Source of the DNA: Bdellovibrionales bacterium
Lineage (GTDB): Bacteria > Bdellovibrionota > Bdellovibrionia > Bdellovibrionales > DASUEL01
Length of the DNA: 17,768 nt
Reading direction: 5' to 3'
NCBI GenBank assembly: GCA_050250255.1
Contig: JBFWOZ010000053.1
Location: forward strand, 1 to 17,768
Numbering within the stretch: the stretch's first letter is position 1; every line of letters begins with the position of its first letter. A program made the translations under genes and the position numbers. Below the pieces are notes generated by a model, which saw only the letters and a program-made list of their open reading frames with translations, ran no database searches and was not told the DNA's origin. Below, piece after piece: positions 1 to 17,768 of the stretch.

Positions 1-405
1 CTTCGCAGAAATATTCTCAGGGGGATTCCCGCTTCAATCAATAGCCGACCTATACACTCTTTAAAAACACTATCTATCAAGGGTTACGAAACTTTTCGGA
101 CACGCTCCAGCGAAGCTCGAGCAAAAATCTATAGCTGTCCCAGAGAAGTAAGCAGTTTAAAAACCTAGATCGAACGGTTGGGAAGACCGTTCGAACATGG
201 GGGTATGGGGGCAAACAATACCGGGATCCGAGTATTCTCGTTAACGGAATACCTGGATCCAAGTGCTTAAAATTCAAAGAATGGGTAATTCTACAGTAGA
301 AAAAGGAGAGCCCCAGCTTGTCAGAGTTAGCTGCAATATAATGAGCGGTGCGTAACAAGCGCTCGCCGCATCGTTTCTTAATCGTTCTCATATCGGATAG
401 CATTT

Positions 406-434
406 TTGACAAGCTACAGGGCCTAAGTTAGGCT
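406..434 (+). promoter_or_regulatory. Putative sigma70 promoter of the bamA-lipid A operon
   Basis: TTGACA (406-411), 17-bp spacer, TAGGCT (429-434; TAnnnT), about 75 bp upstream of the likely bamA start. The palindrome GCCTAA-G-TTAGGC (421-433) overlaps the spacer and -10. Confidence 0.6.
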
Positions 435-508
435 CCCTGAGAATGAGCGTCTCTTAAAAATTCATATGAAAAATCAACGATTTGATTCGCATCGATGAGG
501 AAAGCAAG

Positions 509-2995: not shown

Positions 2996-3043
2996 GAAGG
3001 GCAAAACTTTTAAGATGAAAACAAAAAATAACCGGGAGGTAGT

Positions 3044-3553
3044 ATGAAACAGTTTACTCAAGCGCTTGCGGTGGTAGCTCTTTTTTTCGCGCAGAATGCA
3101 ATGTCTGCGGACCTGAAGATTGGCTACATCGATCTTCAAAAAGCCATTCAGGATACAAAGGCTGGAAAAAAAGCAAAAGCCGACATGGAAAAGGATATTG
3201 AGAAAAAGAAAAAAGAATTGCAGGACAAAGAAAAAGAGCTACAAAAAATGACTCAGGATTTTGAAAAGAAGAGCATGGTTTTGTCTGAAGAAATTCGTCA
3301 GAAAAAACAAATGGAGCTTCAGCAAGAAATCATGAAATATCGTGAGAACGTAGGTAAGAGTCAGATGGAACTTCAGGCGAAAGAGCGAGACCTCACTGCG
3401 CCTATTCTCGAAAAAATGAAAAAAGTGATCGAGAAAGTCGCAAAGGATGAGAAGCTGGCTATGGTTCTGGAAAAGTCTGAGCACAGTGTGGTTTGGGCCG
3501 AGAAAGAATTAGATATCACAGAAAAAGTCGTTTCCAACTTCGAGAAGATGTAA
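3044..3553 (+). CDS. skp: Periplasmic chaperone Skp/OmpH
   Basis: Signal peptide, KIGYIDLQKAI N-terminus, long K/E/Q coiled coil, DITEKVV C-terminus, GGGAGG RBS, directly downstream of bamA. Confidence 0.93.
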   Translation: MKQFTQALAVVALFFAQNAMSADLKIGYIDLQKAIQDTKAGKKAKADMEKDIEKKKKELQDKEKELQKMTQDFEKKSMVLSEEIRQKKQMELQQEIMKYRENVGKSQMELQAKERDLTAPILEKMKKVIEKVAKDEKLAMVLEKSEHSVVWAEKELDITEKVVSNFEKM

Positions 3554-3566
3554 TTCGAGGAGTCAC

Positions 3567-4052
3567 ATGGGTCGCTATCAAAAAGAACCGCCTTGGGAAA
3601 TTGATCATATTTTAGAACTGTTGCCACATCGATATCCTTTTGTGTTGGTGGATCGAGTTGTAAAAATCAATCAACAAGGTACTGATGACAACCGTGAGAA
3701 TAGCGAAATTTTCGCTATCAAAAATGTCACATTTAACGAAAACTTTTTTCCAGGGCATTTCCCTACGCGCCCTATTATGCCAGGAGTTCTCATTGTTGAG
3801 GCTATGGCACAAGCTTGCGCATTGATGAGCTGTCGTCCGCTCCCTCCCGAAGCAAAACGATGGGATTTTTATATCGTAGGTGTGAATGACGCGAAGTTTC
3901 GACGACCGGTTGTGCCCGGTGATCAAATCGAACTATATGGGAAAATCATTCGAGACAAAAAAAGTATGGTTATTTTTAATGCGGAAGCCAGAGTGGAAGG
4001 ACAGGTCGCTGCCCAAGCCCAAATCATGGCGAAAATGGTCGCTATCACTTAG
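3567..4052 (+). CDS. fabZ: 3-hydroxyacyl-ACP dehydratase FabZ
   Basis: [53 protein letters not shown]. Confidence 0.97.
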
Positions 4053-4063
4053 AGGATAAATTT

Positions 4064-4846
4064 ATGTCAATACATCCTTCGGCTGTGATTTCTCGTGATG
4101 CCATCATTGCACCTGATGCGAAGATCGGTCCCTTCTGTATTATCACAGGTAAAGTTAAAATTGGTGCCAGAACAAAACTTGATAGCCATGTTAGTGTGGG
4201 TTCCGATTACGGCATTGTTGAAATTGGTGAAGACAATCATATTTGTTCGGGTGCGGCCCTTGGCGGATTACCTCAAGATATTCACTATAAAAATGATCCT
4301 ACGAAACTTGTGATCGGTAATAAAAATGTTATTCGCGAGTTTGCGACACTCAATATTGGGACTGTTCGTGGCAAGGGCGAGACCAGGCTTGGTGATGATA
4401 ATTTGATTATGGCTTATGTCCATTTAGGACATGACTGCCAAGTTGGGAATCACAATATCATCGTGAATTCGACGCAAATTGCAGGGCACGTGCAAGTCGA
4501 TAACCATGTCACCATCAGCGGTGTGTGTGCGGTAAATCAGTTTGTACGTATTGGAAGTTACACTTTTATTGCGGGTGCAAGCTCGGTACATAAAGATGTG
4601 ATTCCCTACACTATTTGTCGTGGAAATTATGCAGTCTCCGCTGCTACGAATAAAATTGGACTTCAACGTTCGGGAATGACTCCAGAAAATGTGGAGAACA
4701 TTAACCGTGCGGTTCGCATTATTCTTAAGAGCACGTCTACGGTGGCAGAATCGCTCGAGCGAGTTGCGAAAGAGTGTCAGATGACCAAAGAAATGGAATA
4801 TCTCGTAAACTTTGTTAAAAATTCTAAGCGAGGTATTGCTAAGTGA
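4064..4846 (+). CDS. lpxA: Acyl-ACP--UDP-N-acetylglucosamine (or UDP-GlcNAc3N) acyltransferase LpxA
   Basis: IHPSAVI start, hexapeptide repeats, PQD motif, IREFATLNIGT, catalytic HLGHDC; follows fabZ. Confidence 0.96.
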   Translation: MSIHPSAVISRDAIIAPDAKIGPFCIITGKVKIGARTKLDSHVSVGSDYGIVEIGEDNHICSGAALGGLPQDIHYKNDPTKLVIGNKNVIREFATLNIGTVRGKGETRLGDDNLIMAYVHLGHDCQVGNHNIIVNSTQIAGHVQVDNHVTISGVCAVNQFVRIGSYTFIAGASSVHKDVIPYTICRGNYAVSAATNKIGLQRSGMTPENVENINRAVRIILKSTSTVAESLERVAKECQMTKEMEYLVNFVKNSKRGIAK

Positions 4847-5775
4847 GTGCTAAAAATCTCTCCTCACTTCGTACGGCGGTCATTGGGGTTGGATATCTAG
4901 GACGATTCCATGCGCAAAAACATAAAACGCTAGGGACATTGAAGTTTATTTGTGATGCTTCGGCGGAACGAGCCGTAGAGAGGGGGAAAGAGCTTGGCGT
5001 TGAATCAACTTCCAGCTACGAAAGCCTTCTGGGAAAAGTAGATGCGGTGACGATCGCTGCCGATACAACCTCGCACTACAAAGTTGCAGAATTTTTTCTA
5101 AAAAACGGCGTACATACACTTGTTGAAAAACCCATCACGGTGAAAGTGGAAGAGGGCGAAAAGCTTGTGGCGCTCGCGCGCAAGAACTCTTTAGTGTTAC
5201 AAGTGGGACACATTGAGAGATTTAATCCGGTTTTTGTTCATGGACAAAAGTTGATTCAAAAGCCTCGTTATGTGGAATTACAACGTCTCGCACCTTTTAA
5301 AACTCGAAGTCTATCAGTCGATGTGATTTTAGACCTCATGATTCATGATATTGACTTGGCAAGGGCTTACACGAAGGCGAAATTAAAAGATTTTTCTGCC
5401 GCGGGAGTTAGAATTTTTTCTGATTATAATGATTGGGCTCAAGCACATCTGTATTTTGAAGATGGATTCCATGCGAACATGATTGTGAGTCGTGCCGATT
5501 CGCAATCGGTTCGCAAAATCACGGTCGTCGATCAAGATCGCGTTTTAACTCTTGATCTTGGTGGAACAAGCATTCAAATTGCCGAAAAAAGTGATGATCC
5601 AGCACAGCCGTTAAAGTTGGGCACAGTTACGGTCGACAAATTTGACGCGCTTTTGGCGGAAACGGAAAGTTTTTTTAACTCCATCGTGAGCGGAGCACCA
5701 GTTCAGGTAACAGGCGAAGACGGTCTTGAAGCTCTTCGTATTGCTGAATTGGTAATGAAAAAAATCAAAGGATAA
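4843..5775 (+). CDS. gnnA: Gfo/Idh/MocA NAD-dependent oxidoreductase, probable UDP-GlcNAc 3-dehydrogenase (GnnA-like)
   Basis: Rossmann GVGYLGRFH, VEKP, VGHIERFNP, DVILDLMIHDID. GTG start overlaps the lpxA stop, and the gene lies between lpxA and lpxB as gnnA does in Acidithiobacillus. The family call is firm; the gnnA assignment rests on context. Confidence 0.75.
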   Translation: MSAKNLSSLRTAVIGVGYLGRFHAQKHKTLGTLKFICDASAERAVERGKELGVESTSSYESLLGKVDAVTIAADTTSHYKVAEFFLKNGVHTLVEKPITVKVEEGEKLVALARKNSLVLQVGHIERFNPVFVHGQKLIQKPRYVELQRLAPFKTRSLSVDVILDLMIHDIDLARAYTKAKLKDFSAAGVRIFSDYNDWAQAHLYFEDGFHANMIVSRADSQSVRKITVVDQDRVLTLDLGGTSIQIAEKSDDPAQPLKLGTVTVDKFDALLAETESFFNSIVSGAPVQVTGEDGLEALRIAELVMKKIKG

Positions 5776-5778
5776 CTT

Positions 5779-6918
5779 GTGGAACAAGCCTCTGTCTTGA
5801 TTGTGGCTGCGGAAGAATCAAGCAGCCTTTATGCTTTGAGGCTTTTAGAGAAGTGGAAGACTGAGGGACTTAGCATTTCAGCTTTTGGTGTTGGCAGTCG
5901 CGAGATGGAAATGGCGGGATTCCATCGGTTAGGTCATTCCGAAGAGATGGCGGTCGTAGGTCTCTCTGAAATTCTCTCTCATTGGAAAACGATCAAGTCT
6001 ACGTACTATAGCATTTTAGAAGAATGCCGCAAAAAAAAACCAAAATACGCCCTGCTCATGGATTATCCTGGTTTCAATCTTCGCCTCGCGAAGGAACTTA
6101 AGAAGATGGGGATTCCTGTCATTTATTATATTTCCCCGCAGCTTTGGGCCTGGAAAGAGGGCCGCATTAAAACAATGCGTGCCTACGTAGATCATGTGCT
6201 GGTGCTTTTTCCCTTTGAAGAAGAATTTTATAAAAAGAGAAATGTGAAGGCCACCTTTGTCGGACATCCCATTCTTGACGAATTAAGCGATGAGCAATTA
6301 AGTTCAGAAGCTCAGCAAATTAAGAGAAATAAATTTGGAGTGGCCAGCGGCAAAAAGATTTTAGGTTTGATGCCTGGGAGTCGCAAAGGTGAGATTCGGT
6401 ATAATTTTGAAGCTCAGCTTCAGACCGCCCAAATTCTCACCTCACAAGACCCTCAGCTCCATGTGCAAGTTTTGCTAGCACCCAGTCTTAAAAAGTCAGA
6501 TCTGCCTCTGCAGAATATTTCTTTTCCACTGTCGGTGATTCAATTAAAGCCTTTTGAAATGATCAGCATGTGTGATGTGATCCTCTGTGCTTCAGGGACG
6601 GCCACGTTGATGGTAGGTCTTATGGAAAAACCTATGGTGATTATGTATAAAGCGCATGCTTTAACGGCTTGGTTAGCTCGGCGCCTCGTCAAGATTTCTC
6701 ATGTTGGTCTCGTCAATATCATCGCTCAAAGAGAAATCGTTCCTGAGCTGCTACAAGAGGATGCCAATCCTGAGAAATTAGCCCAAACGCTCAAAGACTT
6801 GCTTTATAATCAACAAAAACACGATCAAATGGTGCATGATTTAAGGAACCTGAAAACTCTTCTTGGCTCTCGGGGAGCAACAGACCGTGTTGCAGAAATT
6901 TTGAGACAGTACTTATGA
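5779..6918 (+). CDS. lpxB: Lipid-A-disaccharide synthase LpxB
   Basis: DYPGFNLRLA, YYISPQLWAWKEGR, FPFE, FVGHP, MPGSRKGE, ASGTATL, PELLQ. Confidence 0.97.
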   Translation: MEQASVLIVAAEESSSLYALRLLEKWKTEGLSISAFGVGSREMEMAGFHRLGHSEEMAVVGLSEILSHWKTIKSTYYSILEECRKKKPKYALLMDYPGFNLRLAKELKKMGIPVIYYISPQLWAWKEGRIKTMRAYVDHVLVLFPFEEEFYKKRNVKATFVGHPILDELSDEQLSSEAQQIKRNKFGVASGKKILGLMPGSRKGEIRYNFEAQLQTAQILTSQDPQLHVQVLLAPSLKKSDLPLQNISFPLSVIQLKPFEMISMCDVILCASGTATLMVGLMEKPMVIMYKAHALTAWLARRLVKISHVGLVNIIAQREIVPELLQEDANPEKLAQTLKDLLYNQQKHDQMVHDLRNLKTLLGSRGATDRVAEILRQYL

Positions 6919-7937
6919 TTTTTCTTAGATATCTTCTTTCACCATTTGCACTTTTGTTTCAATTTGGCGTGATCGTCAGGCAAATTCTTTTTGATCTCAA
7001 AATTTTGAAATCGGTAAGAACAAAGGCGAAGGTGTTTTCTGTCGGGAACATTACTTCAGGGGGAACAGGAAAAACTCCGATCGTTTCTCTTGTTGGTCAG
7101 TGGGCAGAACGAAAAAAAATCACTACTGCGATTATTGCCAGGGGTTATGGAACCAAAGTGGAAGGTTGTCAGGAAGTCTCCCTTTCTCCAAGTGCCGCAG
7201 AAGCTTTTGGAGATGAACCTGTAGAGATTAAAAGTCGCCTCCCTCTTATGCCCGTATTTGTAAGTGCCTCCAAATCCCAGGCGGCCTTGCATGTGGATCA
7301 AACGTTAAGTCCTAAACTCATGATCGTGGATGATGGATTTCAGCACTTACGCTTAGAAAGAGACTTAGACATCGTGCTTTTGGATACGACGGCTCCAGAC
7401 TTCCACTACTGGCCTCTACCCATGGGTTACGGGAGAGATACGTTCGTTCGTTTGCAAAAAGCGGATGTGGTGATCCTCACTAAATTTAATTTAGCTACGG
7501 AAGTTCGGCAGATTTGGCATAAAACCCGAGTGCCAAAAAACAAACCTATTTTTTATGCGGATTATTTGTTGGAAGAGATCACGGATCTACAGACGGGTAA
7601 AAGAATTCCCATTTCTCAGCTCATTCAAAAGAAAGTGGTTCTGATGGCTGGGCTTGCCAACCCGTTGAGCTTTGAGAATCTTCTGTGTTCTGAGAAGATG
7701 AATATTATGGAGTATTTTCAATTCCCAGATCACCATGCCTATTCGAAAAAAGATTTAGAGAAAGTTTATAAATATATTCATTCTACCAACGCAAATTGCA
7801 TTATAACGACCGAAAAAGATGCCGTAAAGCTTGCTCCTTTTATCCCTTTTCCGGTTCCTATTCTTGTGACAAAGTTAAAGTTAAGTTTTCAAAATGAAAA
7901 AGAGTTTTATGAAATCCTTGACCGGCATATGTCTTAA
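6915..7937 (+). CDS. lpxK: Tetraacyldisaccharide 4'-kinase LpxK
   Basis: VGNITSGGTGKTP P-loop, RGYG, GDEP, DDGFQH, FPDHH, TTEKDAVK; ATGA overlap with lpxB. Confidence 0.96.
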   Translation: MIFLRYLLSPFALLFQFGVIVRQILFDLKILKSVRTKAKVFSVGNITSGGTGKTPIVSLVGQWAERKKITTAIIARGYGTKVEGCQEVSLSPSAAEAFGDEPVEIKSRLPLMPVFVSASKSQAALHVDQTLSPKLMIVDDGFQHLRLERDLDIVLLDTTAPDFHYWPLPMGYGRDTFVRLQKADVVILTKFNLATEVRQIWHKTRVPKNKPIFYADYLLEEITDLQTGKRIPISQLIQKKVVLMAGLANPLSFENLLCSEKMNIMEYFQFPDHHAYSKKDLEKVYKYIHSTNANCIITTEKDAVKLAPFIPFPVPILVTKLKLSFQNEKEFYEILDRHMS

Positions 7938-8787
7938 ATTCTTTTCTTATTTTATGCATTCGTTGCCGAGATCGCTCCAGCTGTTGGCGGGAGATTTGCT
8001 GGCCTATTTTGCTTTTGATATTCTTAGGTTTCGACGAAAAATCACGATGGATAATGTACAGCTGGCCTTTCCAAAACTGTCTTTGAAAGAGCAGACCCAA
8101 ATAGCTCGTGGAAGTTATAAAATTTTAGGCAGAAGCCTCATCGAATATAGTCATTTTCCCTTTATGAATATGGCGTGGATTGAAAAAAATTGTGAACTTC
8201 ATGGGCGCGAGAAAATTCAACGAGCGATAGATCAAAAAAAAGGGGTGTTGGTGCTCGGGCTGCATCTCGGGAATGGAGATCTCGCCCTCGCATCTCTCGC
8301 CGTTCAGGGATATCCTATTAATCTGATTTCTAAGCACTTTAAATCTGAGTGGCTCAATGAGATTTGGTTCGGGGTAAGAAAAAAAATTGGGATGAAGTTC
8401 ACTCCGGAAGAGAAAAGCTCTTACCAAATCCTGCGGGGCTTAAAAAACAAAGATTGTGTTGTATTCGTTTTAGATCAGTTTATGGGTCCTCCGGCTGGAG
8501 TGAGCACGATTTTTTTTGGTAAAGAAACGGGGACGGCCGCAGGGCTGGCGCTATTTTCTTTACGTAGTGGCGCTCCCGTAGTCCCGGCTTACACTTTTCG
8601 CGTAGAGAGCGGCAAAACTATGATGATCTTTGAGGACCCTATTGAACCTATCAAAACGGATAATCACGAAGCGGATGTGTCAAAAATGACCCAAATTTAC
8701 ACGTCCAAGCTCGAAGAAATTATTAAAAAATATCCTGATCAGTGGATGTGGCTGCATAGACGTTGGAAAACTTTTGAAGTACGATAA
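7894..8787 (+). CDS. Lipid A late (secondary) acyltransferase, LpxL/HtrB/MsbB family
   Basis: H-x4-D motif HLGNGD, VLDQ, FFG, and C-terminal YPDQWMWLHRRWK. Start uncertain (ATG 7894 or 7909); both overlap the end of lpxK. Confidence 0.9.
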   Translation: MKKSFMKSLTGICLKFFSYFMHSLPRSLQLLAGDLLAYFAFDILRFRRKITMDNVQLAFPKLSLKEQTQIARGSYKILGRSLIEYSHFPFMNMAWIEKNCELHGREKIQRAIDQKKGVLVLGLHLGNGDLALASLAVQGYPINLISKHFKSEWLNEIWFGVRKKIGMKFTPEEKSSYQILRGLKNKDCVVFVLDQFMGPPAGVSTIFFGKETGTAAGLALFSLRSGAPVVPAYTFRVESGKTMMIFEDPIEPIKTDNHEADVSKMTQIYTSKLEEIIKKYPDQWMWLHRRWKTFEVR

Positions 8788-8791
8788 CTCC

Positions 8792-9814
8792 ATGATGAAG
8801 AAACTGGCACTTATTCCTGCTATTTTTGTTCTCGTAACTTGCGCTTCTAAACCTTTGGAATACGAACATGCAAAGGATTTAGGGAAAATTGAGGCTTACG
8901 ATAAGCTCATTCAGGTTAAAGATTTACCTACAGATGCACCTCCTGCCGTCGCAACGCCAGTAGCGGAGACTCCAAAATCACCAGCTCCAGCAGTCCCAAA
9001 AGCTAAATTTTCAAAAAAAGCGAAGAAGGTGAAAAAAGTAGAGATAGACCCGTCCATACATTTGCCAGACTTAGAAGATGGTGAAGGTTTTGTGGGCCGC
9101 CGACCTACGATAGATCCATTTCGTGTGGGTGAAAAAATCACCATGATGATGACTTACTTCGGGGTTTCGGCCGGAGACATGATCTTAGAAGTAAAACCTT
9201 TTAAAGAAGTAAATGGAAACAAATCCTATCACATGATGGTGACACTCAAATCGAGTGACCTCTTTTCTTTAGTTTATTTAGTAGATGATTACGGTGAGAC
9301 TTTCATTGATTACGAAAACTTCACCCCTTACAACGCCAATATTTCTGCGACAGAATCAAAAAAACTACTCGCTTTGAAGACGGTTTTTGATTTCAAAAAG
9401 AACAAAGGTTATCGCTGGGAAAGACTAGTGAATAAAGGCGAAGCTCCTCGTGAAAGAAATGTGGAATGGGATATTCTTCCATTTTCTCAAAACGTGATTA
9501 GTGCTTTTTATTACGTGAGAGCTTTTACACTTCGACCAGGAAAAGTTTTTCGTTTTCATGTTGCCGATGACGGTAAAAATATGAACGTTAAAATTGAAGT
9601 ACTCAGAAAAGAAAAAATCAAAACGCGTGTGGGGGAGTTCAATACACTTGTTTTGAAACCGACTGTTGAAATCGGTGGCATTTTCCAGCCGATGGGGGAT
9701 GTTCTCTTTTGGGTGACTGACGACGAACGCAAATTGTATGTCAAATTAGAAGCCCAAATCAAAATTGGGAAAGTTATCGGCGTTTTAAAGTCCCTTGAAA
9801 AAGGCGGACCTTGA
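8792..9814 (+). CDS. DUF3108-like exported protein, probable lipoprotein
   Basis: ATG 8792 follows the acyltransferase stop and gives MMKKLALIPAIFVLVT-C (lipobox-like). A P/A/K-rich linker follows, then PFRVGEKIT..Y.GVSAG, IKTRVGEFNT and FWVTDDERK..VK, resembling DUF3108 proteins (recognised by eye). Confidence 0.7.
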   Translation: MMKKLALIPAIFVLVTCASKPLEYEHAKDLGKIEAYDKLIQVKDLPTDAPPAVATPVAETPKSPAPAVPKAKFSKKAKKVKKVEIDPSIHLPDLEDGEGFVGRRPTIDPFRVGEKITMMMTYFGVSAGDMILEVKPFKEVNGNKSYHMMVTLKSSDLFSLVYLVDDYGETFIDYENFTPYNANISATESKKLLALKTVFDFKKNKGYRWERLVNKGEAPRERNVEWDILPFSQNVISAFYYVRAFTLRPGKVFRFHVADDGKNMNVKIEVLRKEKIKTRVGEFNTLVLKPTVEIGGIFQPMGDVLFWVTDDERKLYVKLEAQIKIGKVIGVLKSLEKGGP

Positions 9815-9865
9815 TCTAGTTTCTTGTTATAGGAGCAACCTATTGCTCTTCTGACGCCATCTGTA

Positions 9866-9894
9866 TTGTGGGAACGGAAGAGCCTCCTTAAACT
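9866..9894 (+). promoter_or_regulatory. Candidate sigma70 promoter for a leaderless GT9 transcript
   Basis: TTGTGG (9866-9871), 17 bp, TAAACT (9889-9894), then 6 nt to ATG 9901; no Shine-Dalgarno upstream of the ATG. Confidence 0.45.
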
Positions 9895-9900
9895 ATCCTA

Positions 9901-11076
9901 ATGGCACTGACAAATTGTAGGTATTTTAACGGCTATAAACCTTGTGGCCGATCTTCTTCTTGTGATGAATTTTGTACTTCAAAAGATATTCCTCAAATTA
10001 GAATATTGGTGGTTCACCTTGGAGCTCTTGGGGCCGTCGTGAGATCAACAAGTCTTTTGAGCGCGATCAAAAGAAAATATCCGTCAAGCCATATTACTTG
10101 GGTGACAGATAAACCAGCTCACCACTTTTTTCAGAATCAAACTAAGGTAGATCGAATTTTGACATCTACTCCAGAAGATTTGCTTGTTCTTTCCATTTTA
10201 GAATTTGATGTCGCTTTTTGTATCGATAAAAGTTTGAAGGCGGCAGGCATCTTAGCACAAACACAGTACGATATTCTCTATGGATACAAAGCGGATCCAA
10301 CAGGAGCGATTGTTCCTGCAACAGCAGCTGCGGAAGAGTATTGGCAATTAGGATTAGATAATCATAAAAAATTCTATGTGAATCAAAAACCAGAAACCCA
10401 ACTTATTTGTGAAGCCTTAGAGCTCACTTATCAGCGTGATCCGTATGATCTTGTACTATCAGCGGCTGAGCAGGAACGATCCAAGCAGCGTCGTGAAAGA
10501 TGGCTTGGGAACTCTAAAGCGATTGTGGGAATCAATACGGGGTGTAGTCCTGTTATTAAATATAAAAAAATGAGTGTATTAGGTCACCGTCAGCTTCTTT
10601 CAGAACTGATGACCATTTCGAATATCTCCATAGTACTTCTTGGTGGGGGTGAGGAAGATGAACATCGTAACCGAGAGATTGGTTATGGGTTTCCAGTCCA
10701 CCAGAGCCCTACACTCGAGGGTGTGCGAGACGGTTTAGTGTCCGTGGTCGCTTGTGATGTGGTGATCACAGGTGATAGCCTTGGAATGCATATGGCGATC
10801 GCGTTGAAAAAATGGACGGTCGCATGGTTCGGACCAACATGCGCTCAGGAGATTGATCTCTATGATCGAGGAGAAAAAGTGATAACGACGGCTCCTTGTA
10901 ACCCATGCTGGAAGAGGTCTTGTCAAAAAAAACCCATGTGTTACGATTTGGTACCTTTGCCACAAATGATGGAAAGCACACTGAGAGGGCTTGAGGAGAT
11001 CGTGTGGAAAGACAACAAAAAAATCTCATTGTCCAAACAGCCTTTCTTGGAGACACACTCCTTTCCTTACCCTTAA
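9901..11076 (+). CDS. Glycosyltransferase family 9 (LPS heptosyltransferase-like) with Cys-rich termini
   Basis: ILVVHLGALGAVVRST, YPSSHITWVT, VITGDSLGMHMAIAL...VAWFGPT, C-terminal CNPCWKRSC..MC. Confidence 0.9.
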   Translation: MALTNCRYFNGYKPCGRSSSCDEFCTSKDIPQIRILVVHLGALGAVVRSTSLLSAIKRKYPSSHITWVTDKPAHHFFQNQTKVDRILTSTPEDLLVLSILEFDVAFCIDKSLKAAGILAQTQYDILYGYKADPTGAIVPATAAAEEYWQLGLDNHKKFYVNQKPETQLICEALELTYQRDPYDLVLSAAEQERSKQRRERWLGNSKAIVGINTGCSPVIKYKKMSVLGHRQLLSELMTISNISIVLLGGGEEDEHRNREIGYGFPVHQSPTLEGVRDGLVSVVACDVVITGDSLGMHMAIALKKWTVAWFGPTCAQEIDLYDRGEKVITTAPCNPCWKRSCQKKPMCYDLVPLPQMMESTLRGLEEIVWKDNKKISLSKQPFLETHSFPYP

Positions 11077-12071
11077 TTCTTTATGTACGAAAAATATATC
11101 CCGAACAAGAAATTTGGTATCTCTGTCGAGAGGGACTAGGGGAGTTACTGCTCCATTTGAAGCTTGTGGATAAAGTGATAGAAGTCAAAAAAAGAAAATC
11201 AGATAGTTACGATCAAGTTATTAAAGATTTAAAGAATGAGCAGTTTGAAAATATTTTTTCTCCTCATGAGTCTTTTCGAACGTCCATGCTTGTAAAAAAA
11301 TTGAAGGCGAAAAGAAAAATTGGATTTAAAAAATGGTGGAATTCTCTTATTTACACTCATCGCCTTTCAAAACCAAAACATCTGCCAGATGCTTTAAGGC
11401 AACTGTATCTCCTTTATTTTTTAAGCCCCGAGCTCAACCAATTTTTTTCTAATAAACAAGGTGCGCAGGTTTTTGCTTCGCAAAATGGAATGAAAACCCC
11501 ACAATTACCAGCTTGGGCTTCTATGCAAAGAGAGTTTGAGTTGCGTTTACCTGCGGGGTTTATACAGTCTAATAAAAAGCGGGCGGTTCTTGCGCCGGGA
11601 AGCCAGTGGGTTACAAAACGTTGGACCCCTGAGGGGTTTCTAGAAGTTGGGAAAAACCTTCAGACTCAAGGTTTTGAGATTTTAATTGTGGGATCAAAAG
11701 ATGAAAAGCCGATCTGTGATAAATTAGCGCAAAAGCTTATAGGTGCCCAAAATTTTTGTGGGCAAACAAGTCTCATTGAACTTCTCAGTCTCTTAAAGAA
11801 AAGTGATCTTCTCATCGTGAACGATAGCGGAGTGATGCACATGGGAGCGATTGCCGGCCTCCCTACGGTTGCGATTTATGGTCCAACAACTTTGGATTTA
11901 GGCTATCGTCCTTGGCAATCGGAAGCGCGCGTTGTGGAGAAGTCACTCCCTTGTCGGCCTTGCGGTAAACACGGCCATGACAAATGTCCTATCGGTACCC
12001 ACGAATGCATGAAGTCGATTGCGGCCTCAGAGGTTCTTTCCGCAGTAGATTCATTATCTCTTAAAGCATAA
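11004..12071 (+). CDS. Glycosyltransferase family 9, WaaF-like LPS heptosyltransferase
   Basis: QTAFLGDTLL, APGSQWVTKRW, VNDSGVMHMG..AGLPTVAIYGPT, CRPCGKHGHDKCPIGTHECM; GTG start with GAGGAG RBS at 10993-10998. Confidence 0.92.
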   Translation: MERQQKNLIVQTAFLGDTLLSLPLILYVRKIYPEQEIWYLCREGLGELLLHLKLVDKVIEVKKRKSDSYDQVIKDLKNEQFENIFSPHESFRTSMLVKKLKAKRKIGFKKWWNSLIYTHRLSKPKHLPDALRQLYLLYFLSPELNQFFSNKQGAQVFASQNGMKTPQLPAWASMQREFELRLPAGFIQSNKKRAVLAPGSQWVTKRWTPEGFLEVGKNLQTQGFEILIVGSKDEKPICDKLAQKLIGAQNFCGQTSLIELLSLLKKSDLLIVNDSGVMHMGAIAGLPTVAIYGPTTLDLGYRPWQSEARVVEKSLPCRPCGKHGHDKCPIGTHECMKSIAASEVLSAVDSLSLKA

Positions 12072-12081
12072 AGTAATGAGT

Positions 12082-12200
12082 TGGTTTGGGCAGAAAAAGT
12101 TCTCACCCAAAAGCTCAAACAGTCCTCACCAATGTCCTCATTTCATGAGGACATTGTCTGCGGAACTCGTTTTGGGCGAAAACTTTTTCTGCCCAAACCA
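12082..12200 (-). repeat. Long hairpin element, copy 1 (119 bp)
   Basis: 31-bp inverted arms 12082-12112/12170-12200 with 2 mismatches, both G-U compatible only on the - strand. Inner perfect 12-bp hairpin 12130-12141/12145-12156. Core shared with copy 2. Confidence 0.93.
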
Positions 12201-12410
12201 GATCCCGCTCATCTTTTGTTTTAAGATGTTTCAAGAATTGGCTCCTAGAATTTTGCCCGTGCCGTATCCTCAGCCCAATGTGAGAATCGCTATACCAAAA
12301 GATGTTTTAAATAAATGTTCGAAAGTTCTAAGAAATTAATAGATCTGCATTTCTGATTCTAATCACATAAAGATTTTGGAATTAATTGGTTTTAACTCGA
12401 GAGTAGTTGA

Positions 12411-12580
12411 TTCCTGTTTCCTTAGAAAAGTTTTTGTCCAAAACGAGTTCCGCAGCGCCTACACACCAAATAGTTTATAAGGGGGTAGAGCAGAAATCAC
12501 TTGGGGTCTAACGCAATCAAAGGTAAAGGCGCGAGGACTGTCTGAGCTTTTGGGCGAAAACTTTTCTAAGGAAACAGGAA
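12411..12580 (+). repeat. Long hairpin element, copy 2 (170 bp), inverted relative to copy 1
   Basis: 33-bp inverted arms 12411-12443/12548-12580 with 2 mismatches, both G-U on the + strand. Core CGAGTTCCGCAG (12444-12455) and GCGAGGACTGTCTGAGC (12531-12547) match copy 1 reverse complement at 12/12 and 15/17. Confidence 0.93.
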
Positions 12581-12601
12581 GTAAGTTTTAGTAACGTTAA
12601 A

Positions 12602-13471
12602 CTAATCCTTCGGACGATTGAAGGGAGTTGTGTCGAAAGGGATTTTGTTGAGTTCTTCTTTAAGAATTTCTTGATACTCAGCGACTTGGATGTCGACGCC
12701 AGAAATTTCTTTTAGCCAGTCCGCATCTGCTTGAGCGGCAAATTGGTAGCCGTGAATGCAATGGGCGCCTAGCTCTGCCGCTTCTTTGGAAAGTGGGGAG
12801 GGAATGGGGTAGAGATTCATATCGATAACGGTTGCCGGGTTCTTTAAAAAATTAAAATAATACAAATCTTTCAGAATTGTGTTTTCAGTCGTAAGGGGTG
12901 TGGTGTTGATCATGACGGAGTTCACTCCGGGAAGAAGCATGATGGAGGATTGAGGAACAAATTGGAACTCAACGTTGAAATACGTTTTTTTTACTTCTGC
13001 CATAAGCTCTGAACCAAGTTTATTATCTCGATCTGTTATATGGAATTTTAAAAATCCCATCTGAGCAAAAACACCAATCAACACTCGGGTTGTAGAACCT
13101 GCTCCCACAATAAAAATTGCAGAGTGGTGGTTCACGGACTTCATGTTTAGACTAAATTGCTTCATAATGGCGCCAAAGAGAAAAGATTTTGGCCACCAGA
13201 CAGATCGAATTTTGATGAGAGCATCGCCTGAGCGAATGCGCGAAATCTGTTCAGTATTATGAACGCCCATATGAGTGATTCTGTTGCCAAAGGGTGGTCC
13301 AATGCGAATAAAGTCGTATTGATTTTGGCAATCTTTGACTACGTCGAGGACGTTTTCCGATGTAGCAGGCATTTTTGTGAGCGTATTGGTTATACCCTTA
13401 GAGGTCATGAACTGACTAAGAGCTTCAAAGCGAGCCGCATTCTGCTCAGCGGTAACTACACACCATTTCAT
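12602..13471 (-). CDS. Divergent shikimate dehydrogenase (AroE)-like protein
   Basis: AroE-like length (289 aa) and C-terminal NAD(P) domain motifs: IVGAGSTTR, INTTP, VIDMNLYP..SPL, HG....AQA. N-terminal catalytic motifs are not recognisable. 4-nt overlap with the ribF stop. Confidence 0.7.
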   Translation of the reverse strand: MKWCVVTAEQNAARFEALSQFMTSKGITNTLTKMPATSENVLDVVKDCQNQYDFIRIGPPFGNRITHMGVHNTEQISRIRSGDALIKIRSVWWPKSFLFGAIMKQFSLNMKSVNHHSAIFIVGAGSTTRVLIGVFAQMGFLKFHITDRDNKLGSELMAEVKKTYFNVEFQFVPQSSIMLLPGVNSVMINTTPLTTENTILKDLYYFNFLKNPATVIDMNLYPIPSPLSKEAAELGAHCIHGYQFAAQADADWLKEISGVDIQVAEYQEILKEELNKIPFDTTPFNRPKD

Positions 13472-14475
13472 TTTTTTAAATCCTTATAATTTCTGAAAAA
13501 ATCGCGAGTCATTTGAACGTCTTCAGTAATTTGTTTCTTTAATTCTTGAATGGATGAAAACTTTTTTTCTACTCGTAATTTTTTAAAAAAATCAACTGAC
13601 AGAACCTCACCGTAAAGATCTTGATCAAAATCCAAAATATAAGTTTCGATTTTCATATTATTTTTTTGTGAATTTCTATCATCCTCAAAGGTCGGGTTGA
13701 ATCCCACGTTCGTGACAGAAGGAAAAAACTGACCTTTCACTTGAGTGTGAGTAACGTAAACTCCGGGACTTGGTGCCACGCCTGTGCCAGATGCAATGTT
13801 GACGGTGGGAAATCCGAGATGTCGTCCACGCTGCGCACCTTTAATAACAACACCTTTTAAATAAAAAGGGCGGCTAAGAGCTTCTTGGGCTTTTTCCATT
13901 TCACCTAGTTTTATTTTTTCTCGAATGTAGGAGCTGGAAATAATTTGTTCTTTTTTCCGAAGCGGCGGCACGACTTGAAGTTCAAAACCCCATTCTTGAG
14001 AGAGCTTTTCTAGCAGAGGGATGTTTCCTGATCGGTTTGCGCCGAAAGAAAAATCATAGCCTACTACTAATGCAATCGGTGAAAGAGGCTCAAAAATAAT
14101 TTCTTTTAAAAAAGTTTCTGGAGACATTTGTGAAAGCTCTCGAGAGAAAGGCTGAATGAAAAGATAATCAATACCCATTTTTTCTAGCTCTGAGATTTGG
14201 TCATCACGATCGAATAATTTGATGAGTTTTTTTTCGGGATAAAGAATTTGCATTGGATGTGGGTCAAAGGTCATTACTACGGATTTAGCCTGAAGCTCCC
14301 TAGACTTTTGTAGGAGATTTTGAAGAAGGGCGCGATGTCCCAGATGGACTCCATCAAAGTTGCCGATACTTACCACAGAGCGGGTGATTTCAGAGGGTTC
14401 ATGGCTACCATTTTGAGGCCGAGAGCTGGACCTTAGTTGTGGGCTAAGTTGTTTGATGTCACGCAGTACTTTCAC
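13468..14475 (-). CDS. ribF: Bifunctional riboflavin kinase/FAD synthetase RibF
   Basis: IGNFDGVHLGH, TFDPHP, VVGYDFSFG, ISSSYIR, GRHLGFPTVN, NVGFNPTF, IETYILDF..DLYG. Confidence 0.97.
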   Translation of the reverse strand: MKVLRDIKQLSPQLRSSSRPQNGSHEPSEITRSVVSIGNFDGVHLGHRALLQNLLQKSRELQAKSVVMTFDPHPMQILYPEKKLIKLFDRDDQISELEKMGIDYLFIQPFSRELSQMSPETFLKEIIFEPLSPIALVVGYDFSFGANRSGNIPLLEKLSQEWGFELQVVPPLRKKEQIISSSYIREKIKLGEMEKAQEALSRPFYLKGVVIKGAQRGRHLGFPTVNIASGTGVAPSPGVYVTHTQVKGQFFPSVTNVGFNPTFEDDRNSQKNNMKIETYILDFDQDLYGEVLSVDFFKKLRVEKKFSSIQELKKQITEDVQMTRDFFRNYKDLKK

Positions 14476-14481
14476 GCTCCA

Positions 14482-14490
14482 AGGTTACCA
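14482..14490 (-). promoter_or_regulatory. Candidate extended -10 promoter for a leaderless ribF transcript
   Basis: The minus strand reads TG-G-TAACCT-tggagc-GTG: an extended -10 ending 6 nt before the GTG start at 14475. Confidence 0.4.
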
Positions 14491-14497
14491 TAAAAAT

Positions 14498-14524
14498 TCA
14501 GAATTTCACACGTCTTTCCGATGA
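14498..14524 (+). promoter_or_regulatory. Possible sigma28 (FliA)-type promoter for pilB
   Basis: TCAG (14498-14501)-N15-TCCGATGA (14517-14524) resembles TAAA-N15-GCCGATAA, about 20 nt before the likely pilB start. Confidence 0.3.
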
Positions 14525-14544
14525 GATGCATGAAGGAGCTTCAC

Positions 14545-16278
14545 ATGTCTGCAGCAAAAAAAATTGGTGAATTATTGGTTCAAGAAAATGTGATTAAGCT
14601 AGACCAGCTTGAAAAAGCAAAGGTTGAGCAAAAGAGCAACGGTGGACGGTTAGGTGCGGCTCTTGTGAAGTTAGGTTATGTAAAAGAAACCGACCTTGCA
14701 GAGTTTGTATCAAAGCAATATCAAATTCCATCTATCGATTTGAGTTCTTTCGAAATTGATCCTGAAATTGTAAAGCTTATTCCAAAAGAAGTTTGTGAAA
14801 AACATCTCGTTTTTCCAGTTTCAAAAGCGGGAGATACTCTCGTTGTCGCGATGGCGGATCCAGGAAATATCTTTGTTCGTGATGATTTGCGTTTTGTGAC
14901 TCGCATGAAGATCGAAGTTGTAGTTGCTGCAGAAACAGCAATTGTGAAAATCATTGAGCAACATTACGGTCGAAAAGTTCAAATGGACAGCATCATTAAC
15001 GAGCTTGAAAAAGAAGATGCCAAAAATAAAACCCAAGTGAATTCACGTTCTGGTGCCGCCATGAACATGGGACCCGTCGTAGAAATCGTGGATAGTGGTG
15101 GAAAAGATGACGCTCCCGTTATTAAGTTTGTAAATGCCATGTTGACTGAAGCCGTTAAAACTCAATCTTCCGATATCCATCTTGAGCCGTATGAAAAACG
15201 ATTCCGTGTCAGATTTCGTATTGACGGTGTGCTCTACGAACGTTTGCAGCCACCTGCAAATATGGCCTCAGCTATTTTGAGTCGTATTAAAATTATGTCG
15301 CAATTGGATATAGCTGAACGACGCCGCCCTCAAGATGGACGTATGAAAATTCGCACCAAGGCAGGGCAAGATATTGATTTTCGGGTAAGTGTCCTTCCGA
15401 CTCTTTTTGGCGAAAAAATTGTGATGCGTTTACTCGATAAAAGCAATCTCCAACTAGACATGACAAAGCTTGGATTTACCGAACGTCAGCTCCAAATATT
15501 TAAAGAGGCCATCGCCTTGCCTCATGGAATGGTGCTGGTCACTGGACCAACGGGCAGCGGTAAATCGACAACTATTTATTCAGCCCTTATGGAGCTGAAT
15601 AAGGCAGATACGAATATTTCTACTGCGGAAGATCCGGTGGAATTTAACTTAGAGGGGATCAATCAAGTACAGATGAATGCGGATGTGGATCTGACTTTTG
15701 CGAGCGCTTTGAAGAGTTTTCTCCGCCAAGATCCTGATGTGATTATGGTGGGGGAGATTCGTGACTTCGACACGGCTGAGATTGCAATCAAAGCCGCGCT
15801 CACAGGCCATTTGGTGGTGAGTACTCTCCATACAAACGATGCTCCTAGTAGTATCTATCGACTCTTAAATATGGGTGCAGAACCTTTCCTTGTAGGGTCA
15901 GTTTTGACTTGTATCGTGGCTCAGCGACTTATGAGACAGATATGCTTACACTGCAAAGAAGAGATAAAAGTGGAGCCTGATGTTTTGATAAAAGCAGGAT
16001 TTGATGCTGCGGAAATTCCAAACCTACATATTATGAAGGGCAAAGGATGCTCCCAATGTAATGAAATTGGATACAGGGGTCGCGTTGCAGTATATGAAGT
16101 GCTAAGATTTACTGACAAGCTAAAGCAAGGTATCCTACATGGTGTAACTCCATTAGAGTTGAAAAAGTTAGCCATTGAAGATGGTATGACAACTTTAAGA
16201 ACGAGTGCTTTAGAGCGTGTTCGAAGTGGTGTTTCGACAATCGAAGAAGCCATGGAAACGACGGCTCCAGATAAATAG
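14545..16278 (+). CDS. pilB: Type IV pilus assembly ATPase PilB
   Basis: MshEN-like N-terminus, SDIHLEP, LDIAERRRPQDGR, Walker A GPTGSGKS, EDPVE, LRQDPDVIMVGEIRD, TLHTND, CLHC/CSQC Zn motif. Start set at ATG 14545 (AAGGAG at 14533-14538) rather than 14521. Confidence 0.97.
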   Translation: MSAAKKIGELLVQENVIKLDQLEKAKVEQKSNGGRLGAALVKLGYVKETDLAEFVSKQYQIPSIDLSSFEIDPEIVKLIPKEVCEKHLVFPVSKAGDTLVVAMADPGNIFVRDDLRFVTRMKIEVVVAAETAIVKIIEQHYGRKVQMDSIINELEKEDAKNKTQVNSRSGAAMNMGPVVEIVDSGGKDDAPVIKFVNAMLTEAVKTQSSDIHLEPYEKRFRVRFRIDGVLYERLQPPANMASAILSRIKIMSQLDIAERRRPQDGRMKIRTKAGQDIDFRVSVLPTLFGEKIVMRLLDKSNLQLDMTKLGFTERQLQIFKEAIALPHGMVLVTGPTGSGKSTTIYSALMELNKADTNISTAEDPVEFNLEGINQVQMNADVDLTFASALKSFLRQDPDVIMVGEIRDFDTAEIAIKAALTGHLVVSTLHTNDAPSSIYRLLNMGAEPFLVGSVLTCIVAQRLMRQICLHCKEEIKVEPDVLIKAGFDAAEIPNLHIMKGKGCSQCNEIGYRGRVAVYEVLRFTDKLKQGILHGVTPLELKKLAIEDGMTTLRTSALERVRSGVSTIEEAMETTAPDK

Positions 16279-16302
16279 TCTTAGACTAAGGAGAATTTAA
16301 GG

Positions 16303-17370
16303 ATGAATCATCTCCGCCAACTTTTAAAAGTGGCCATTGAACAAGGGGCTTCGGATATTCACATTACATCCGGTGCTCCTCCGCTTCTGCGTATTGATGG
16401 TAGCCTTGTAAAAGTACGTTCAGCAGACTTAGAGCCCGCTGAAACCAAGGAGCTTTGCTACTCTCTTTTGACAGAAGAGCAAAAAAGTCGCTTTGAAGAG
16501 ACCAAAGAATTAGATTTTAGTTTTGGAATTAAAGGTCTTGCGCGATTTCGTGCGAACATGTTTTATCAAAGAGGTACCGTTGCGGCGGCCGTTCGTCGTA
16601 TTCCAGTAGAAATTCCTGATTACAAAACTTTGGGGCTTCCGCAGATGGTGGGAGATTTCACTCACTATCATAATGGTCTGGTGTTGGTTACGGGTCCTAC
16701 GGGTTCTGGGAAAACCACAACTTTGGCTTCACTGATTGATAAAATTAATACCGAAGAGCGGGGTCATATCATTACGATTGAAGATCCCATTGAATATATC
16801 CACGCACATAAAAAATGTATCGTGAATCAACGAGAAATTGGGTACGACACCTGGGCCTTTAAATCCGCATTGAAGTATGTACTTAGGCAAGATCCCGATT
16901 ATTGTCTAATCGGCGAGATGCGCGATCTTGAGACGATTGAGACTGCGTTAACGGTTGCGGAGACGGGCCATTTGGTTTTTGGAACGCTTCATACCAATTC
17001 CGCCATTCAAACCATTAATCGTATCGTTTCGGTATTTGATGGTGGGCAAAGAGATCGTATTCGAACGCTTTTAAGTTTTGTTCTTCAAGGAATTGTTTCT
17101 CAAAGACTGATTCCCGGAATTGATGGTGGTCGAGTATTAGCCGTTGAAATTCTAGTTTTAACTCCGGCAATCCGTAACCTTATTCGCGAAGATAAGCTGC
17201 ATCAAATTTATGGTGTTATGCAAACGGGCCAAAATCGTACAGGCATGATGACCATGAACCAGTCTCTTATGAATTTATTAATGAAAAGAAAAATTGATAT
17301 GAAGCGAGCCTTTGAGGCAAGCCCTGAGCCTGAAGAGTTAGATGCGCTCCTTAAGAAAGCGGGGATCTAA
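16303..17370 (+). CDS. pilT: Type IV pilus retraction ATPase PilT
   Basis: ASDIHI, GPTGSGKTTT, EDPIEY, GEMRDLET, TLHTNSA, diagnostic AIRNLIRE; AAGGAG upstream. Confidence 0.97.
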   Translation: MNHLRQLLKVAIEQGASDIHITSGAPPLLRIDGSLVKVRSADLEPAETKELCYSLLTEEQKSRFEETKELDFSFGIKGLARFRANMFYQRGTVAAAVRRIPVEIPDYKTLGLPQMVGDFTHYHNGLVLVTGPTGSGKTTTLASLIDKINTEERGHIITIEDPIEYIHAHKKCIVNQREIGYDTWAFKSALKYVLRQDPDYCLIGEMRDLETIETALTVAETGHLVFGTLHTNSAIQTINRIVSVFDGGQRDRIRTLLSFVLQGIVSQRLIPGIDGGRVLAVEILVLTPAIRNLIREDKLHQIYGVMQTGQNRTGMMTMNQSLMNLLMKRKIDMKRAFEASPEPEELDALLKKAGI

Positions 17371-17372
17371 CG

Positions 17373-17768
17373 ATGCCCATATTTGCCTTTCAAGCTAAAC
17401 AGATGGATGGTCGTGGGGTCAAAGGAGAGATTGAAGCCTCCAGTGAAGTTGAAGCTCGCGTAAAAATCCGTGCTCAGCAAATGATTCCCATTAAAGTTGT
17501 TGCAAGTAATGGGGCGGGTGGTGGCACAAGCTTAGGCAATATGTTTTCCGGCAAAGGTGGAGTCTCTGGTCTTCTGATCCCAAAAGTAAAAACTAAGGAT
17601 TTAAAAGTGTTCACGAGACAATTTGCGACTCTTATTAACTCCGGTGTGGCCGTTGTTCAAAGTCTGGAGTTACTCGAAAGATCGAGTTCAAATCCCACTT
17701 TAAAATTGTGTCTCACTAAAATTCGCCAAGATATCTCTATGGGAAAAAAGCTCGCGGACAGCATGGCG
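17373..17768 (+). CDS. pilC: Type IV pilus inner-membrane platform protein PilC (5' part, truncated by the window end)
   Basis: Not in the ORF track. Manual translation from ATG 17373 is open to the window end: MPIFAFQAKQMDGRGVKGEIEA...KVKTKDLKVFTRQFATLINSGVAVVQSLELL...ISMGKKLADSMA, with a T2SSF/PilC FTRQ.ATL..SG motif; follows pilT. Confidence 0.93.
   Translation, partial: MPIFAFQAKQMDGRGVKGEIEASSEVEARVKIRAQQMIPIKVVASNGAGGGTSLGNMFSGKGGVSGLLIPKVKTKDLKVFTRQFATLINSGVAVVQSLELLERSSSNPTLKLCLTKIRQDISMGKKLADSMA

Follow-up and report, generated by a model that had tools for sequence, protein, structure and literature searches.

A hairpin repeat with a near-invariant core at bacterial gene ends that may fold as single-stranded DNA

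Introduction

How do two neighbouring hairpins come to hold a nearly identical, non-palindromic core when the outermost parts of their stems are unrelated? This question is raised by a 17,768-nucleotide stretch of DNA from a Bdellovibrionales bacterium (contig JBFWOZ010000053.1, positions 1 to 17,768; hereafter the window), in which two such elements lie side by side between convergent genes. An initial annotation, made from the sequence alone, described them as a candidate new repeat family with a core of specific sequence and selection for a single-stranded fold, and suggested either a structured non-coding RNA or a mobile palindromic element. Bacterial palindromic repeats are usually lineage-specific and bound to their own transposase. 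The elements of the window bear on how repeats can spread without a dedicated enzyme, and on how they come to be sited in one orientation at gene ends.

Results

Two inverted hairpins occupy the gap between convergent genes

The window gap is bounded by a GT9 heptosyltransferase-like gene (11004..12071, + strand), the last in a run of LPS/lipid A genes, and by a convergent AroE-like shikimate dehydrogenase gene (12602..13471, - strand), whose scores are below the NCBIfam cut-offs. It holds two long hairpins in inverted orientation, and the 3' end of each gene adjoins one of them. Seven window proteins were scanned: two were GT9 heptosyltransferase-like, one was AroE-like, one was RibF, one was lipid A acyltransferase-like and two had no match. 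None was a transposase, as the initial annotation had stated. An 87-aa ORF at 12076-12339 overlaps the first hairpin, has no family match and is probably spurious.

Copy 1 (12082..12200, - strand) is a complete hairpin in the order A..B, antisense to the GT9 gene. Read on the - strand, it consists of a 31-nt 5' outer arm (12170..12200), core half A, GAGTTCCGCA (12159..12168), an inner hairpin closed by a GAA triloop (12128..12158), core half B, GAGGACTGTTTGA (12115..12127), and a 3' outer arm (12082..12112). The B-side arm ends 10 nt from the GT9 stop codon, and imperfect pairing of the 3' arm runs on into the stop region. Copy 2 (12411..12580, + strand) is likewise complete and in the order A..B, is antisense to the AroE-like gene, and has a B-side arm ending 21 nt from that gene's stop codon. 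Its parts are a 33-nt 5' outer arm (12411..12443), core half A, again GAGTTCCGCA (12445..12454), a variable inner segment of 78 nt closed by a short GC helix (12455..12532), core half B, GAGGACTGTCTGA (12533..12545), and a 3' outer arm (12548..12580), all on the + strand. The outer arms of both copies were delimited with a repeat finder.

Both the sequence and the repeat finder confirm the description of an inverted hairpin pair with shared core halves. The outermost segments are unrelated between the copies, as claimed, and the arms of each copy are 94% complementary (31 nt in copy 1 and 33 nt in copy 2), with two mismatches per arm pair. The four mismatches, which had been read as wobbles on one strand, are all G.T on the element-sense strand, and the GTG/GCG difference in the core, also read as a wobble, makes the closing pair of copy 1 a G.T. 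Folded as RNA, the element-sense strand was more stable than its complement in copy 1 (-73.8 vs -64.0 kcal/mol) and in copy 2 (-69.5 vs -58.8 kcal/mol), with hairpin z-scores against 200 shuffles of -12.7 and -7.1, respectively. Half B matched the window twice where 0.09 matches are expected, and none of 200 shuffles reached two. A terminator scan returned a terminator-like site in neither copy. A promoter scan found no promoter-like site in the gap, and neither copy has a target duplication or TA termini.

The core recurs across phyla in two circular orders

The core is made of two strands, A (GAGTTCCGCA) and B (GAGGACTGTYYGA), which together have 23 letters, are non-palindromic and lie between two variable helices; the form common to both window copies is A GAGTTCCGCA and B GAGGACTGTYTGA. 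The initial annotation proposed a search for more copies. The 3.09-Mb genome of the same organism holds six complete ones (two on contig C53 and one each on C4, C20, C60 and C67) and one B-only half (C3), with about 6e-6 chance occurrences expected in the genome for both halves within 100 nt. The complete copies have about 12 core-proximal arm bases in common, and their distal arms differ at each locus (one row, G029d, was left out of the arm alignment). Exact B was present in 11 of the 61 genomes of the order and its reversed control in none. Half A was found in 39 of the 41 genomes of one genus, above control, and 49 of the 73 same-genus A matches checked had B downstream, mostly as the variant GAGGACTGTCCGA. 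Since this variant predominates in the well-sampled genus, counts of exact B underestimate the number of carriers.

A scan of genome contigs with B alone gave at least 129 loci and at least 135 distinct B matches. Among the matches listed, A lay within 110 nt of B in 119 of 135, compared with 0 of 135 for a reversed-motif control. The 119 pairs fell into two circular orders: the window order of A, inner part and B (order A; 50 elements) and the opposite order of B, short loop and A (order B; 69 elements). The core thus amounts to an internal loop flanked by two helices, and either helix can be the closed one. The inner part ranges from 5 to about 85 nt, and the minimal form of the element has about 35 bases. 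By their record titles, complete elements belong to at least 15 phylum-level groups. These include Pseudomonadota, Actinomycetota, Bacillota, Bacteroidota, Planctomycetota, Nitrospirota, Spirochaetota, Patescibacteria, Omnitrophota, Latescibacterota, Gemmatimonadota and Myxococcota.

Metagenomes, scanned with a relaxed pattern, revealed a wider family that keeps the minimal loop NTGTYTGA/GAGTT. Of its 128 distinct matches, 9 are of the window's subtype, and the flanks pair in 86% of cases (n = 117) compared with 23% after shuffling. Across 301 genomes of the phylum, a loose order-B pattern was not above its reversed control and was left out of the evidence. Phages and plasmids rarely carry the element: IMG/VR gave one exact order-B locus, copy 2 had no meaningful match among plasmids, and the known copies are chromosomal and near housekeeping genes. 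A viral scan with half A followed by AAAA returned 39 loci, which we read as chance. The location of the copies, chromosomal and not at plasmid or phage origins, speaks against a phage or plasmid single-strand initiation signal.

Small self-cleaving nucleic acids have a two-strand invariant internal loop between freely varying helices. By analogy, the core could itself be catalytic, a self-cleaving RNA or DNA (in the latter case a natural deoxyribozyme) whose own cut would serve its spread. Its build, present in both circular orders, resembles that of such molecules, and our partner searches (below) found no dedicated enzyme that would make the break instead. We nevertheless regard a catalytic core as very unlikely: the minimal loop that the wider family keeps is small for a catalyst, and no known ribozyme model in Rfam matched.

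The fold is specific to one strand and carries DNA-type loops

We counted outer-stem wobbles in 63 distinct stems, skipping core-adjacent pairs and leaving out five mis-paired rows, and obtained 47 G.T and 12 A.C on the element strand (p = 5e-6). A first count that kept the core-adjacent pairs, and with them a conserved C.A beside the core, gave 59 G.T and 40 A.C. The bias recurred in 48 stems of one genus (29 G.T vs 6 A.C), at most three of which overlap with the 63-stem set, and in the organism's own genome (9 G.T vs 0 A.C). The strand-specific fold claimed for the window copies thus extends to further copies. In addition, the two variable core bases were pyrimidines in all 185 matches (CT 94, TT 56, CC 35; duplicates counted) to a pattern that left those two bases free, as expected from T.G and C-G pairing on the element strand. 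Together, the wobble bias and the pyrimidine-only variation indicate that the fold matters on this strand.

The loops provide a second line of evidence. Short closures collected in a scan whose pattern left the loop open contained C-GNA-G in 50 of 74, GNRA in 3 and UNCG in 0 (among the matches listed, related genomes included), while the opposite strand gave C-GNA-G once and UNCG three times. The inner hairpin loops are GAA in copy 1, GCA in C20 and GAA in C67; in the best-sampled genus C-AAA-G (8) is more frequent than C-GAA-G (3), and AAA forms no GNA mini-hairpin. According to PMC13037366, a stable DNA mini-hairpin is formed only by GNA triloops, and the GCGAAAGC DNA mini-hairpin melts at 76.5 deg C compared with 39 for its RNA counterpart. 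The GNA triloops, together with a folded strand that is antisense to the adjacent mRNA, favour DNA over a non-coding RNA, and the element therefore likely folds as single-stranded DNA.

Many order-B elements also carry a pyrimidine-pyrimidine-purine, triplex-like tail 3' of the core (79 of 180, compared with 1 of 47 in order A, by a loose pattern). At L074, L079, L088, L120, L218, L219, L265 and other loci the triplex-like tail is T-rich and lies 50-110 nt 3' of the core; its strands co-vary, and its terminal hairpin loop is often GCGAAGC or contains CAAG.

As an alternative, an antisense or convergent transcript (a small RNA or a 3' end element) might carry the core as a structured RNA motif, which appears rather unlikely to us. 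Tandem G.A pairs are common in RNA, the G.U wobble bias is equally compatible with an RNA, and the order-B tail would then be an RNA triple helix that shields the 3' end; an RNA-level role would also predict the strict polarity relative to transcription described below. The loops, however, are of the GNA rather than the GNRA or UNCG type, the strand that folds is the one antisense to the nearest mRNA, genes in the sense direction are mostly distant, the window gap has no promoter-like site and Rfam gave no match. The single-stranded fold proposed in the initial annotation is supported, and of its two options, a structured non-coding RNA or a mobile palindrome, the non-coding RNA is the weaker choice given the triloops and the antisense strand. 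A relative's RNA-run contigs are interrupted at the inverted repeat, but those from a probable DNA run are too, and the former thus have no bearing on expression.

Elements are sited in one orientation at gene 3' ends

Of 92 order-A elements, 27 have the stop of a gene no more than 30 nt from the B-side arm, with the element antisense to that gene; a stop as close as this to the A-side arm was seen once. Outside the oversampled genus the counts were 10 vs 1 of 45, and for order-B elements (n = 99), counted within 250 nt, they were 55 vs 20; all of these counts include related genomes and use a crude ORF filter. Genes in the sense direction were mostly far from the elements, which are located in 3' trailers. 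The terminator of the upstream gene lies inside the element in two orthologous sets. Replication-strand bias was absent in the organism's own genome (3 leading, 4 lagging). Where a copy lies at the 3' end of a tRNA (four cases), its far arm repeats the final 5-8 tRNA bases in inverted orientation.

Orthologous copies are retained across species of one genus, and both of their roughly 30-bp locus-specific arms change together; one orthologous site is empty in a congener. For the window locus, the core was absent at the aroE orthologues of 19 relatives, but at the distance of these relatives an empty site cannot be delimited. Inverted element doublets like that of the window were seen at L553, L558 and L574, in three genomes of one genus.

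Portions of PMC5941160 and PMC8794818 describe how template switching homogenises the arms of inverted repeats and can create stems. For this reason re-paired outer stems alone are weak evidence of selection, and the claim that the fold is selected finds its better support in the wobble bias and the pyrimidine-only core variation. Template switching might even account for the elements altogether, as old palindromes that are kept perfect as a neutral by-product around a functionless core, and the extension of arms into tRNA ends is compatible with this. It cannot maintain the core, however, because the core is non-palindromic. Near-identity of the core across phyla, with variation that is strand-specific, largely refutes such a neutral origin and leaves it scarcely credible.

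No dedicated mobility gene was found with the elements

The initial annotation suggested looking for a co-occurring HUH/RAYT transposase, reverse transcriptase or nuclease, and our searches yielded a partner of none of these kinds. Neighbouring genes are varied housekeeping genes, with no recurrent mobile gene detected by clustering. A Pfam scan of 147 of the 317 neighbour ORFs (the short ones) found one T5orf172 and one rve but no Y1 domain. The organism's own genome has 11 Y1 genes, all of them lacking the core at their flanks, and Y1 is not enriched in carriers of exact B (8 of 11, vs 39 of 50 other genomes). The same genome has no reverse transcriptase, IS256 or small GIY-YIG match and a single long GIY-YIG match, and the two short GIY-YIG genes of genome G029 do not have the core at their flanks.

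Some paired elements do enclose genes: one for a transposase that looks IS4-like by eye, one of the Abi_alpha family and one hypothetical. At L130:2501-4212 the 444-aa transposase-like ORF between inverted core elements is probably an insertion sequence that entered a doublet. At L212:1501-2688 the Abi_alpha (PF14337) gene lies between two inverted relaxed-core elements, as if it were defence cargo. In the organism's own genome (G000), at C60 near 2523 and just 3' of a core copy, there is a short direct repeat and a truncated start of a transposase-like ORF.

In genome G008 the core lies within a MITE of about 200 bp, whose copies have their ends in common and are flanked by 9-bp target duplications; a derivative of this MITE without the core exists as well. 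Such shared terminal inverted repeats were seen in G008 and not in the organism's own genome, in G029 or in genus g31. We considered whether the core is cargo of several MITE families that are moved by ordinary DDE transposases, with hosts retaining the stem for mRNA 3' stability or processing and template switching causing the arms to drift. Besides the G008 copies, the location in 3' trailers and the two orthologous sets that enclose an upstream terminator are consistent with this, and ERIC-type MITEs influence mRNA stability in an orientation-dependent manner (parts of PMC2229807). However, most copies, including all six in the organism's own genome, have neither shared ends nor a target duplication, and the only IS256-family match in G008 is a fragment that lacks the ends of the MITE. 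MITE cargo would also leave the invariance of the core, its circular permutation and the choice of the strand opposite to the mRNA unexplained, and we hold it to be rather improbable.

Discussion

A candidate DNA fold on the template strand past gene ends

Our preferred reading, to which we assign a probability of roughly 45%, is tentative: the elements are copies of a dispersed gene-less repeat with a near-invariant core, which would fold as single-stranded DNA on the template strand past gene ends and be bound by a putative protein partner. Transcription-driven supercoiling, or replication, may expose the palindrome as a cruciform or hairpin. The arm on the template strand would then fold into a compact internal loop, in which tandem sheared G.A pairs (TGA/GAG and GA/GCA) lie between the helices, an arrangement that would allow either helix to be the closed one. 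A putative trans-acting nuclease or transposase, or a conserved host DNA enzyme, may recognise this fold, and nicking followed by template-switch repair could both carry the core to new gene ends and keep remaking the outer stem from local sequence. To judge by its long persistence at orthologous sites, the element may be kept by its hosts.

A bolder version sees in the core a functional fold of natural single-stranded DNA, conserved among bacterial phyla as a ribozyme core would be and able to work in either circular order. Such a fold would cut itself or call on a single host DNA enzyme that is universal, and so copy itself to gene ends with no transposase of its own and with its stem remade from the target. 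We consider this unlikely.

That the same 23-base core occurs from Actinomycetota to Patescibacteria, in both orders and with loops of the DNA type, points either to a biochemical partner that the carriers share or to an activity intrinsic to the folded DNA. If the DNA fold is real, it would be a widespread natural DNA structure with a putative partner protein. The minimal form is short enough to be tractable with synthetic oligonucleotides.

Comparison with known repeat families

As far as the literature and databases searched extend, the repeat family is undescribed, which agrees with the novelty proposed at the outset. In Rfam 15, the gathering threshold was reached by neither the window, L031, L009 nor 33 further loci; L009 and the window gave generic hairpin (miRNA) matches below it. 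Literature searches with exact core and tail strings and by topic returned no description; the supplementary lists that accompany PMC5737381 and PMC11109978 (250 mobile/repeat candidates) lie outside this comparison and may hold the motif. Nor was there a relevant match in the supplements of PMC2864571, PMC6429828 and PMC8632094, of which the first was compared in part and the last in small part, so that the last may hold it as well. Flavo-1 was rejected as an identity: its model misses the elements, the organism's own genome has no match at the gathering threshold, and the conserved letters differ, going by a portion of PMC2864571. Acido-Lenti-1, GUCCY-hairpin, Desulfotalea-1 and Collinsella-1 were likewise rejected, on a mismatch with the subset of supplement rows compared.

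REP, BIME and REPIN sequences with their RAYT (TnpA-REP) transposases are similar in being intergenic non-coding palindromes, mostly 3' of coding regions, that at times form inverted doublets and are likely recognised as folded single-stranded DNA (sections of PMC6006769 and PMC3733652). Unlike the REP families outlined in those sections, the copies in the window and elsewhere in the genome share no GTAG/GTGG or CGTC tag, in their arms or in their core. The core family also differs in its locus-specific arms of about 30 bp, its few copies per genome, its permuted core found across phyla, and its copies not flanking a Y1 gene. TIRYT repeats, as far as the same sources describe them, have arms identical to the inverted repeats of the TIRYT gene, whereas the arms of the core family differ at every locus. 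The organism's own genome separately contains two fixed-arm repeat families, with 22 and 13 pattern matches. Their ends correspond to the inverted repeats around Y1/TIRYT-like genes on C1 and C8, and they are likely TIRYT-mobilised repeats.

We also listed 74 long inverted repeats across the whole G000 genome. Two further families, one with six pattern matches (C1:110538-110655, C9, C12, C16, C29 and C33) and one with four (C1:115220-115344, C3, C11 and C39), have a conserved non-palindromic centre and locus-specific arms of 24-36 bp, which is the build of the window elements with different cores. Palindromic elements of about 265 bp lie at C1:36033-36297, C7:68516-68782, C41:2466-2735 and C92:1-261.

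Long-stem MITEs such as ERIC/IRU, Correia, RUP and YPAL (excerpts of PMC2229807) resemble the core family in length (100-200 bp), in forming a single long stem-loop and in lying between genes near gene ends, and one subfamily, that of G008, has ends common to its copies together with 9-bp target duplications. In contrast to ERIC-type MITEs as presented there, the core family has no TA termini, and most copies have no shared terminal inverted repeat or target duplication. Searched against 5426 E. coli genomes, the minimal element gave only three 21-nt matches, all in coding genes, and no similarity to ERIC/IRU.

The intrastrand triplex repeats BoxC, PIT and TMECO (parts of PMC4666352) recall the pyrimidine-pyrimidine-purine tail of order-B relatives, but TMECO is a G/C-rich class II motif, the order-B tail is T-rich and the window's order-A copies are tail-less. 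Flavo-1 and MRSC-65-2, orphan motifs that came out of ncRNA screens (portions of PMC2864571 and PMC11109978), are likewise multi-copy long stems with conserved internal loops that possibly act at the DNA level; their conserved letters differ from those of the core, and MRSC-65-2 has a UYCCGG repeat.

Ssn (GIY-YIG) nucleases act on NTS/SRM repeats, and compared with the SRM described in sections of PMC11893778 the core family has no HGTCWY-type consensus and no short GIY-YIG gene alongside. One Ssn/SRM-like locus was seen at L576:1250-2000 (G029), where a 98-aa GIY-YIG gene comes with TGTC-type hairpins and a tandem array of a 20-base unit follows. The Ssn system, as those sections present it, is nonetheless a precedent for a hairpin repeat that acts as single-stranded DNA and is read across phyla by a trans-acting nuclease.
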